The position numbers were made by a program. From contig OZ251992.1 in NCBI GenBank assembly GCA_965246885.1, positions 448,001 to 512,000 on the forward strand: a stretch of 64,000 nt of DNA, read 5' to 3'. The stretch comes from Abditibacterium sp. GTDB taxonomy: Bacteria; Armatimonadota; Abditibacteriia; Abditibacteriales; Abditibacteriaceae. Below, piece after piece: positions 15,001 through 18,000 of this stretch; position 1 is the first letter of the stretch; every line of letters starts with the position of its first letter.

Positions 15001-18000
15001 CGTCGGCCCTCTATCCCGACACCAACGGCAACGGCGTCCTCGACCCGGCAGAGCAAGCCACCCCGCTCACCACAGTTGGCCCGCTCGCTCCCGGTCAATC
15101 GGTCGGCGTGTTCGTGAAAGTCTTCGGCCCCGTTTCGGCCACGCAGGTCGGCGGCGTCAACACCACCACGCTCACCGGCACGCTGTCGGCCAACTCGACC
15201 GACACCACCTACACGGCAGGCACCATCAACGGTAGCTCGACCGACTCCACCACGCTCGTCTTTGGCGACGTGAAACTGGACAAGCAGCAATCGCTCACCG
15301 GCGTCGCTGGCTCGTTCGTTCGCTCGAACCTCGCTGTTGGCCCCGGCGGAACGATCTACTACCAGATCACCGTCACCAACACCGGCACCGCGCCCGTGAC
15401 CAGCGTTGTCGTCAACGACGCCACCCCCGCTTACACGACGGCTTTGGCCGCGCCCGCCCCGTCCTACACCGACAAAACCGGCGCAGCAGTCACCACCGGC
15501 ATCACCGCGCCCGCCGCTAACGCCGCCGGTTCCTACACCTTTCCGGTCGGCACCCTCGCGCCAGGCGCGTCCTCGACCATCGTCTTCGCCGTGAAAGTCC
15601 AAGGCTAAGACCAACCGGGCGCCCAGCGCGCTCAAACCAAAACCCCCGGCTCGAAAGAGCCGGGGGTTTTGTTCGTTTTGGGCAGCCTTTAAAACTGCTC
15701 GCGCGCTTCCACGCCCAGCACGCGCAATGCCGCCGTCGCGACGTTGCCCGCCGCGCGCAGCAATTCGAGCCGCCGCGTTGTGGGCGCGAGCGAGGGCGCG
15801 TTGTGGCGCGACAATTCGCGCGCCGCCCGCGCCAATTGGCCCACGAAGTCGGCGACTTTGTGCGGCGCGCGCTCCGATGCGGCGCTCTCCAGACAGTCTG
15901 GCCACAGCGCGACCAAGCGCGCCAGTTCCCGCTCGCCCGTGCTCCACTCGCCGCTTTCTGACGCGGCGGGCGCGCGGCCTTCGAGGGCGCGGCGCATCGT
16001 CGCCAAGCGCGACGGGAGCAATTGTGCGGCGTAAGCGGGGTTCGATTCGTCGTCGCGGGCGGCGATTTCCAAGTCCACAACGGCAGTCTTGCTCGCGGGC
16101 TTGGCGCAAAAGAACCAGCGCAGCGTGTCGGCGCCGACCTCTTCGATTTCCTCGTCCAACACGAGCGGTCCGCCGCCCAAGCCCAGCCGAATCGGGGCGC
16201 CGTCGCGCTCCAAAGCGGCGTCTTCGACGGTGACGAACTCGACCTTGCCCTCGTCCAACCCCGCCGCGCGCAATGCCGCTTTGGTGCGGGCGATGTAGGG
16301 CTTGTGGCCCGCGCTCCACACGTTGAGGATGGCGTCAAAGCCGCGCTCGAACTTCCAAGCGTGATAGGCGACATCGCCCGCGAAGTAGGTGGCGCGGCCC
16401 GTCGCGCGCCGGAGCACGCGGTCGGCGTCGTCGCCAAACTCGGTCGTGCGGAGCCACAACGCCCCGTCGCGCTCGTAGGTGGTGCCGCGCGCGGCGAGCA
16501 TTTCCAAGGCGCGGTCAAGGTGCCCGTCGCGCGCGAGATCGGACTCGCGCACCCACGAATCGAAGCGCGTCCCGAAGCGTTCTAAGGAGGACTTTTGCAG
16601 TTCAACGGCGCGCTCCAAGGCGAACTGCGTGGCGGCTTCCAGCCGTTCTTCGACGGGAACAGCGAGCCACTTCGCGCCGTCGCGCCGCGCCCATTCGCCG
16701 CCGAGGGTGCGCGCAAAAGCGCCCGGAGCGGGCGCGTTTTGGCCAAAAGCGTTCTGATAGGCGCCCCAAACTTCCTCGCCTAAGGCGCGCAGTTTGGGGC
16801 TACTGGTTTGGTCGTTGAGGTAGAACTCGCGCGAAACGCGCGCCCCGGCGCCTTCGAGCAAGCGGCACAAAGATTCGCCCCACGCCGCGTGCCGTCCGGC
16901 GCCCAAAGGAAGCGGGCCGGTCGGGTCGCTGGACACGTATTCGACCAAAATGCGTTGCCCCGCGAGCGCGTTCGAGGCGCCGTAGTGCGCGCCCTCGCGC
17001 GTGGCGCGTTCGAGTTCGGAGAGAAAGTGTTCGTCGCTCATGTGAAATTGCAGCCTGCCAGCCTCGAAAACAACGCGGCCCGCCCAATGGGGGCCGAGCC
17101 GTTGGATGGCAGTTTGCCCGATTTCGTCAGAGGAACGCCCGGTCGTTTGAGCGCTATGGAGAGGGAAATTGGAAGAGAACTCCCCCCACCGTGCGTCGGG
17201 GGCGACGGAAACAACGGCATCGGGCGCGTCCAAGACGCGGGCGAACAGGGCGCGCAGGCGGGAGCGGGTCATGAGAGACAGCGAATAAATTCGCAGCCAG
17301 CGAGGTCGTCGGCCTTCGCCGACGGCGTTTCAGTTACTACGTCGGCGAAGGCCGACGACCTCGCTGGCTGCGAATTTATTCGCTCGCCATTCACCGGCCC
17401 CAAACCGTCGCAGCAAATTGAAACAGCGCCGTGAACGCCGCGCCGCCCGCAAGCGAACCCGCGAACGACCACATCATGCCCGCGTTCAGCAGTCGCAGCG
17501 GCGAGCGCGAGGTCATAAACGGCGTGTTCTGATAGTGCGCCATCAGTTGCTGCGCCGCGCGGATGCCCGATTCCAACTGCTTCTTCGAGGCGGGGCGCGT
17601 TGTGAACAGCACTTGCAGCACGTCGCCAAACGAGCGCCACACGAAGAAGGTGAAGATGAGTAGCCCCAGAATCCAGTCGGGCGTGAGCGCCGAAAGGTGC
17701 GTGATGCCCACGTAAATGAGGCCCGCAATGGCCATCAGGTTCGTGCCGCAACGCGGGTGGGCGCGCGGCATCTTGGCCACGTTTTCCGGCGTGAGCGGCA
17801 GGCCGCGTTCCAAAGCGTGGACGGTCTGATGCTCCGCCGCATGCACGCCCGCCAAGGGCGTGAGGCGAAACATCAGCAGAAAGAACAGGGCATGCAACCC
17901 CGCGAAGAAGGTGTTGAGCAGGTTGGCCGAATCGTTTTGCAAACCCAAGCGCCCCGACAGCACGAGCATGCCGAACTCCGGGTTAATGGCGCGCGCCACG

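Follow-up and report, generated by a model that had tools for sequence, protein, structure and literature searches.

A native arginyl-tRNA synthetase in Abditibacteriaceae that keeps its arginine pocket and has likely lost tRNA charging

In the family Abditibacteriaceae, a native arginyl-tRNA synthetase (ArgRS) is kept next to an imported one. Judged from the sequences, this native-copy pattern is real, selected and recurrent. The unit which selection appears to retain is the arginine pocket together with a presumed site for the tRNA 3' end; ATP chemistry and the reading of A20 and of the anticodon do not belong to it. The native protein studied here, P0001 of an Abditibacterium genome (G000), has likely lost its charging activity, and the best reading is that tRNA-Arg is charged by the imported enzyme, which is of the E. 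coli type. With a probability of about 0.4, we regard P0001 as a protein acting without ATP, which would bind charged tRNA at its arginyl end and either transfer or hydrolyse the arginyl group.

The ArgRS-derived protein, its locus and the second ArgRS

The gene for P0001 was analyzed within a window of 64 kb, by which we mean the whole stretch of DNA under study (Table 1). P0001 gives weak matches to PF00750 and PF05746 and to no other Pfam family. Its TIGR00456 score of 231.5 bits lies under the cut-off of 261.65, whereas orthologs that are the sole ArgRS of their genome reach 350-462 bits. The AlphaFold model covers the full length with a pLDDT of 91.8, and its predicted layout is that of an ArgRS, with Add1, Rossmann core, insertions and helical bundle. 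Among solved structures, 3fnr was the best Foldseek match (TMq 0.76) and the top rows were all ArgRS. Proteins of this type carry the database label arginine-tRNA ligase, and a search of the ESM Atlas returned ordinary ArgRS clusters only. No fusion partner was seen among the longest native-copy hits scanned (up to 996 aa), and the shorter forms (15 hits) are readable as contig ends or frameshifts. No Rfam element, T-box included, was found at gathering score in the 64-kb window or in L001. P0001 shares domain layout, fold, side-chain pocket and ancestral locus with the KMSK-bearing bacterial ArgRS (Firmicute/Campylobacter type; TIGR00456, 3fnr). It differs from this type by the missing KMSK pair and HIGH-loop lysine, an acidic residue 116, a relaxed Gly-x-Asp, replaced anticodon residues and the score below the TIGR00456 cut-off.

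Table 1. Features of the native argS locus, in window positions. "Sole" refers to the 48 aligned ArgRSs from genomes with one ArgRS; counts are proteins with the named residue.
Feature	Position	Strand	Basis
Hairpin with T runs on both sides, terminator-like, between convergent genes	15638..15671	.	Pattern scan: 12 found vs 8.8 in shuffles
ArgRS-derived protein P0001, native (Firmicute-type) argS ortholog, 527 aa	15689..17272	-	Profile matches and predicted full ArgRS fold
Remodelled anticodon-binding domain	15692..16057	-	New RDDE at 406-409; Tyr415, Tyr418, His420, Phe487, Tyr488 and C-terminal Met527 replaced, 0/118 each
KMSK-equivalent loop without Lys/Thr-Arg pair	16172..16192	-	Pair 0/118 family vs 48/48 sole
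Trp319 to Thr330 stretch	16283..16318	-	Gly320-x-Asp322 relaxed; His323 (E. coli Gln341), Tyr326, Arg329, Thr330 each 119/119
Tyr296, Asp300, Lys307 (E. coli Tyr313, Asp317, Arg324 equivalents)	16352..16387	-	119/119, 119/119, Lys/Arg 119/119
Glu243 and CP1/Ins2 insertion	16397..16546	-	Glu243, Trp273, Asp281, Arg289 each 119/119; Asp284 115/119
Lys160, new in family	16793..16795	-	Lys/Arg 115/117, Gln 0/117; Gln 48/48 sole; co-occurs with acidic 116
Gly119 at HIGH-loop lysine position (yeast Lys156 column) and PLGA replacing HIGH	16898..16918	-	Alignment
Asp116 replacing the Asn that contacts the arginine main chain (E. coli Asn123, yeast Asn153)	16925..16927	-	Family Asp 105, Glu 12, Asn 0/117; Asn 48/48 sole
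Glu111 (E. coli Asp118 equivalent, guanidinium binding)	16940..16942	-	117/117 family
N-terminal Add1 domain (A20 pocket)	16973..17272	-	Phe/Tyr-x-Asn 48/48 sole; Phe-x-Asn 42/119 family; Arg-x-Gln in P0001
Palindromic repeat inserted between CBS-DUF1385 and native argS	17281..17383	.	62 places in genome; does not belong to the system
CBS-DUF1385 gene, ancestral upstream neighbour of argS in phylum	17391..18704	-	Synteny
serS, upstream, same strand	18732..20132	-	In 14 family loci

A preliminary description of this DNA had called P0001 the vertically inherited native ArgRS, which is borne out by the conserved argS locus. It had also pointed to a conserved CBS-DUF1385 neighbour. This gene is indeed adjacent in 21/25 family genomes, and start and stop codons of neighbouring genes overlap or almost touch in several of them. 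However, as evidence for a partnership the adjacency does not count, since it is ancestral: the same gene lies upstream of sole ArgRSs (34/49 rows) and is therefore uninformative on the altered copy. It also lies upstream in 12/17 rows from genomes with two ArgRSs outside the family, and it is still present where the native ArgRS was not found. A role of CBS-DUF1385 as a specific partner is thus unsupported. No biosynthetic gene was found among the conserved neighbours of native argS.

The second ArgRS of G000, P0002 (C1:814441-816204), carries the motifs HVGH and PLKTR, and its nearest solved structure is E. coli ArgRS; no further ArgRS was found in the genome. Both ArgRSs are present in 24/24 family relatives and in G174, G175 and G000, which makes 27/27 family genomes. 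Some of the copies are split across contigs. In G174 the second ArgRS has a frameshift, as does the PheT match of this genome, and the native copy of G023 has frame breaks close to its end; both look like assembly errors. In a tree, the second ArgRSs of the family form one clade (support 99); this clade, G027 and a group that includes two proteins labelled Verrucomicrobiota meet in a polytomy. This fits an import from the Verrucomicrobiota side. The claims that a different ArgRS with an intact HIGH-type motif exists and that the native copy is kept family-wide were confirmed, and the claim that the second ArgRS is a xenolog was supported.

Residues lost and kept in the native copy

For comparison, we aligned 48 hand-picked native-type ArgRSs, 1-4 per family, from genomes in which one ArgRS was found. 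G037 (a different ArgRS type), G168 and genomes with the imported type only were left out. The family alignment comprises 119 proteins, with per-column totals of 117, 118 or 119.

The preliminary description had stated that the HIGH motif and the KMSK-equivalent loop are lost throughout the family, and that the protein should therefore not activate arginine. P0001 does read PLGA at residues 122-125 (window 16898-16909), and the KMSK pair is missing in every family protein. The loss of HIGH is less complete: of 117 family proteins, 4 have His at position 122, 11 have His at position 125 and 3 keep both. As a proof of inactivity the loss of HIGH had to be rejected, as it fails the control: both histidines are equally absent in 25/48 sole and presumably active ArgRSs of Armatimonadota, among them those of the one-contig genomes G048, G125, G128, G140 and G152. 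They are also absent in 34/115 canonical-looking representatives. HIGH is thus dispensable in many sole ArgRSs, and motif-based calls of dead synthetases are unsafe.

A loss of charging is still likely, owing to other residues, namely the KMSK pair, Asn116, Gly-x-Asp, the anticodon residues and the two sites for a catalytic lysine. At the ASKRAG-type site the loop of P0001 reads RLGL-GGG. Position 119 in the HIGH loop is Gly in 112, Ser in 4 and Arg in 1 of 117 family proteins. ArgRS reportedly needs a lysine at either the KMSK loop or the HIGH loop, and P0001 appears to have a catalytic lysine at neither. Gly320 is found in 48/48 sole enzymes and 16/119 family proteins, Asp322 in 47/48 and 1/119. 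Add1 holds the pocket for A20, as described in the cited parts of two studies (PMC3956977, PMC8975779).

The losses are unevenly distributed over the protein. Of the positions that are conserved across the sole enzymes, family proteins retain 15/20 and 8/9 in the Rossmann halves and 10/14 in CP1 (33/43 together). Retention is lower in the anticodon domain (9/23), Add1 (3/8), the KMSK region (3/13) and Ins1 (0/4). The C-terminal domain has gained new residues which are invariant in the family (Glu409, Leu418 and Trp457, 118/118 each). Thr330, invariant in the family, is also present in 24/24 of one set of other decayed copies, in 25/48 sole enzymes and in 2/115 canonical representatives. Arg127, located just past the HIGH position, is conserved. 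By comparison with yeast ArgRS structures, Glu243 and the CP1 residues presumably act at the tRNA acceptor and 3' end.

For E. coli ArgRS, the cited part of a structural and ITC study describes D118, Y313, D317 and R324 as binding the guanidinium group and Q341 as contacting the carboxyl group, and the mutants D118A and D317A lose arginine binding (PMC3956977). Equivalents of all five residues are present in P0001, which points to an intact pocket for the arginine side chain; the Q341 equivalent, His323, is invariant in the family. In 14 genome pairs, simple pairwise dN/dS was 0.067-0.221 for the native copy and 0.064-0.311 for the active copy, the pairs being non-independent. The similar values confirm that the native copy is retained under selection. 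The terms "catalytically dead" and "non-catalytic role" used before are too strong, as the invariant arginine pocket would leave a different, ATP-independent chemistry possible.

Recurrence in Armatimonadota

An imported-type ArgRS was found in 79/401 genomes of the phylum, 56 of which lie outside Abditibacteriaceae. In 40 of these 56 the native copy was found as well, in 16 it was not found. After exclusion of G025, where the native copy is in two fragments, 39 dual genomes were classified. Native copies were intact-looking in 6 of them and decayed with the core kept in 32; in one (G027) the core is lost. A copy was called decayed when the KMSK pair and/or the anticodon residues were lost and the core was retained. 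The loop pattern applied to the 39 genomes was looser than that for the family, and some GRYG loops were scored as kept and counted as decayed via the anticodon test.

All 32 decayed copies keep Glu111, Ser114, Pro117, Arg127, Asn153, Asp154, Glu243, Trp273, Arg289, Tyr296, Asp300, His304, Lys307 and Arg329. His323 and Tyr326 are found in 31/32 each and Thr330 in 30/32; the two exceptions with a changed His323 are G179 and G025. Intact sole enzymes and decayed dual ones occur within one family in f20 and in f31. In f15 there is a graded series which leads from intact copies to a protein of 340 aa without Add1 and Ins1. This protein has the ArgRS core fold (pLDDT 92) and matches 3fnr with Z 34.3 and an rmsd of 2.5 over 329 residues.

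Decay of the native ArgRS with the pocket kept appears to have arisen repeatedly in Armatimonadota, as a single origin of all KMSK-less copies was rejected (p-AU 0.001). For f1, f8 and f15 alone a single origin was not rejected (p-AU 0.56); their second copies belong to different clades. In a quick tree with many open forks, from a search seeded with Abditibacteriaceae, 15/15 decayed representatives were placed beside rows of the phylum; with this seed, proteins of the same kind may also occur in other phyla.

Orthologs in sister lineages had been described as intact and sole. This holds for G026 and G028 (family f3, same class), but the nearer relatives G025 (same order) and G027 (same class) have two ArgRSs and an altered native copy. 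The presence of the same pattern in other families of the phylum had been missed by the earlier reader.

A possible role and the alternatives

In the reading we prefer, the native ArgRS would have stopped making Arg-AMP and reading tRNA-Arg identity, with the imported enzyme doing the charging. The native protein would be kept for a second job which was already present in the housekeeping ArgRS of the phylum and which needs just the arginine pocket and a site for the tRNA 3' end. The protein would bind charged tRNA by its arginyl-adenosine end, without ATP, and would move the arginyl group to a thiol, an amine or water. There is a precedent for such chemistry: according to the cited part of one report, ArgRS transfers arginine to thiols >3300-fold faster than the uncatalysed reaction, with aminoacyl-tRNA or aminoacyl-AMP as donor (PMC5370406). 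Both contacts on the carboxylate side (Asn116, His125) are changed in the family, which would fit an esterified arginine. However, outside the family Asn116 is kept in 22/32 and His125 in 27/32 decayed copies, which fits free arginine equally well. For a hydrolase, the intact arginine pocket poses a problem, as cognate Arg-tRNA would be attacked wherever EF-Tu does not protect it. P0001 may also bind a nucleotide, as Arg127 is retained and backbone atoms can suffice to bind adenine. Canavanyl editing is less likely in view of the unchanged acidic pocket. Asp116 was considered as a general catalytic residue and rejected, since it is not common to the other decayed copies. Neither an acceptor nor a partner or linked pathway gene has been found for P0001. 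The second job would moreover not be universal, since 16 of the 56 other genomes with a xenolog yielded no native copy. The repeated and ordered decay would expose a hidden function of a housekeeping enzyme, for which the lineages offer a natural series from the intact protein to the 340-aa core.

Extended to the whole phylum, the proposal would be that the housekeeping ArgRS of Armatimonadota has a second, ATP-independent activity with Arg-tRNA as arginyl donor, and that each foreign takeover has pared the native enzyme down to a synthetase-core arginyl transferase marked by Tyr326, Arg329 and Thr330. We consider this extension unlikely.

The strongest rival, possible though on balance somewhat unlikely, is an arginine sensor. 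P0001 would bind free L-arginine or, in Abditibacteriaceae, a decarboxylated form such as agmatine, and would regulate a partner in the manner of HisZ in histidine synthesis, with the remodelled C-terminal domain as partner surface. E. coli ArgRS binds arginine without tRNA, as described in the part cited (PMC3956977). Every side-chain pocket residue is kept in P0001, the full set of arginine contacts persists in most decayed copies elsewhere, and several copies do without the domains for tRNA identity. The new invariant residues of the C-terminal domain would suit a partner surface, but this motif is not common to other lineages. ArgR was found in 0/27 family and 2/161 phylum genomes (9/14 controls match) and argG in 27/27 family genomes, in agreement with a sensor; ArgR is, however, absent from sole-ArgRS genomes too, so that its absence does not single out P0001. 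A sensor of free arginine should not need Glu243 and Arg289, which are invariant and presumably act at the tRNA end. In addition, ArgB of G000 has an N-terminal extension and a C-terminal motif, which we take to be the signature of arginine-sensitive kinases, and no extra subunit would be needed.

That P0001 is still a slow synthetase, for tRNA-Arg or with an arginine analogue, and that the new Lys160 or Arg356 replaces the lost lysine, is distinctly unlikely. The complete predicted fold and the tolerance of this ArgRS clade for the loss of both HIGH histidines agree with it. In NmLeuRS2 the KMSKS lysine is replaced by Ser, and 1/40 to 1/130 of the activity remains (PMC4005665). Against it, Asn116, Gln160, Gly320 and the Lys/Thr-Arg pair, each present in 48/48 sole enzymes, are found in 0/117, 0/117, 16/119 and 0/118 family proteins, and the anticodon residues are replaced. 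The exchange of Asn to Gln at the A20 site, as in G000, is described to inactivate the Thermus enzyme (PMC8975779, cited in part). G168, which shows a KMSK-less copy only, would agree with a weak synthetase, but this assembly of 160 contigs reaches 89% completeness, and both ArgRSs are present in the congener G136. An odd tRNA-Arg which needs its own enzyme was rejected, as all four tRNA-Arg of G000 carry A20. Slow decay or a purely structural role, in which the gene would linger in its operon with conservation confined to buried residues of the fold, is very unlikely: it would agree with the graded series from intact to core-only within one family and with the apparent loss of the native gene in some lineages, but the native copy has the same dN/dS as the active enzyme, is present in 27/27 family genomes and has its invariant residues in the pocket, where they are charged or polar. 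We give the least credence to a decoy, by which the E. coli-type ArgRS would have been favoured by arginine-tipped antibiotics for its resistance, while the older, sensitive ArgRS would have stayed as a sponge. According to the tiarin preprint (10.64898/2025.12.02.691738), the warhead of trifolitoxin has an arginine at its N terminus, the E. coli enzyme is resistant, and tolerance rises about fourfold when a sensitive ArgRS is overexpressed. A decoy would account for the repeated import and the kept pocket; however, a resistant housekeeping enzyme removes most of the need for a sponge, not all imports are of the E. coli-like clade, and at ~45% identity and a dN/dS near 0.1 the retention in the whole family exceeds what a decoy would lead one to expect.

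P0001 is best placed among the repurposed synthetase paralogs, examples of which are HisZ and YadB; YadB retains its activation motif. In both, a synthetase catalytic domain is reused after anticodon reading was lost, as far as described in the part cited (YadB/GluQ; PMC7373986). HisZ is a class II protein tied to HisG and YadB activates glutamate with ATP, whereas neither a partner nor ATP chemistry is evident for P0001. NmLeuRS2 of Natrialba magadii is likewise a full-length second class I synthetase with a replaced KMSKS lysine, much lower activity and a suspected other function. By the cited account it binds leucine poorly and keeps its tRNA affinity (PMC4005665); P0001 is the opposite, with the pocket kept and the tRNA identity elements decaying. 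Non-charging synthetase paralogs are already known, and what is new is the retention of the ArgRS pocket together with its recurrent decay. In the parts of the open-access literature and AARS Online that were covered, there is no account of an ArgRS in which ATP chemistry and the reading of tRNA identity are shed and the arginine pocket stays.

A possible functional analogue of P0001 is the canavanyl-tRNA deacylase CtdA, which is described to act on the aminoacyl end of tRNA-Arg independently of ATP (PMC12449066, cited in part). P0001 is not a CtdA: the latter has a B3/B4 fold, whereas P0001 is a synthetase core with just PF00750 and PF05746 in Pfam and a pocket that suits a charged guanidinium group. 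A standalone B3/4 protein was not found in the 27 family genomes.

NrtL, a Streptomyces gene product from the old argS locus, offers a further likeness. This "ArgS-related anticodon-binding protein" (NCBIfam NF045898, 327 positions) is an ArgRS leftover without synthetase function. It keeps the tRNA-binding ends without the catalytic core, whereas proteins of the P0001 type keep the core and their tRNA-reading parts decay. P0001 itself is not an NrtL, as it scores 52 bits against a cut-off of 340 and the catalytic core is present. The layout of NrtL is found in the native copy of G027 (NF045898, 147 bits, one stretch).

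Native, imported and fused ArgRS copies

Ten genomes of the phylum Armatimonadota (G030, G031, G033, G034, G036, G048, G125, G128, G140 and G152) encode an ArgRS whose HIGH motif lacks any histidine, with replacements such as SVVN, TVAG and TIGS. In each case this protein is the only ArgRS found in the genome. In G027, what is left of the native ArgRS is the N-terminal Add1 domain and the anticodon-binding domain. This layout resembles that of NrtL, an ArgS-related anticodon-binding protein, and scores 147 bits with the NrtL model, which is below the cut-off of 340. In a further genome, G053, the gene immediately downstream of a shortened copy of DUF1385 encodes an imported-type ArgRS (L139, contig C39). 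This adjacency suggests that the native argS was replaced in place.

P0253 (849 aa) is a single fused protein with a B3/4 domain, scoring over the cut-off, N-terminal to a canonical ArgRS. The B3/4 part looks like an editing domain of the type of CtdA, a canavanyl-tRNA deacylase, joined to its own synthetase; PMC12449066, on CtdA, contains neither "fused" nor "fusion". In the imported-type P0283 (844 aa), about 250 additional residues separate the catalytic and anticodon domains.

Genomic surroundings of P0001

The interval between the CBS-DUF1385 gene and the gene of P0001, the native ArgRS-derived protein, is an insertion site of a palindromic repeat found at 62 places in the genome under study; in close relatives, the CBS-DUF1385 and native ArgRS genes overlap at ATGA. 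The CBS-DUF1385 membrane protein is characteristic of Armatimonadota. The ORF upstream of serS has no Pfam match, and homologs were found in G002 and G010.

Features of the window and of other loci
Feature	Location	Remarks
Small secreted-looking protein	window 12228-12782	next to DUF11-repeat gene; convergent with P0001 gene
DUF11-repeat surface protein	window 12906-15608	900 aa; convergent with P0001 gene
Palindromic repeat	window 17281-17383; also near 42121-42223	100 bases
CBS-DUF1385	window 17391-18704	membrane protein; HAAEH and HPRCGTN invariant
ORF	window 20058-20990	310 aa; upstream of serS, opposite strand
G027 native ArgRS	L065:3862-5031	
tRNA-SeC(tca) (1), tRNA-Stop(tta) (2)	G000:C1:351206, 1435707, 3354297	ARAGORN

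Arginine-related genes and tRNA calls

Only 2 of 161 genomes of the phylum yielded ArgR, whereas argG is present in all 27 genomes of the Abditibacteriaceae. The tRNA-SeC(tca) and the two tRNA-Stop(tta) calls are probably spurious.
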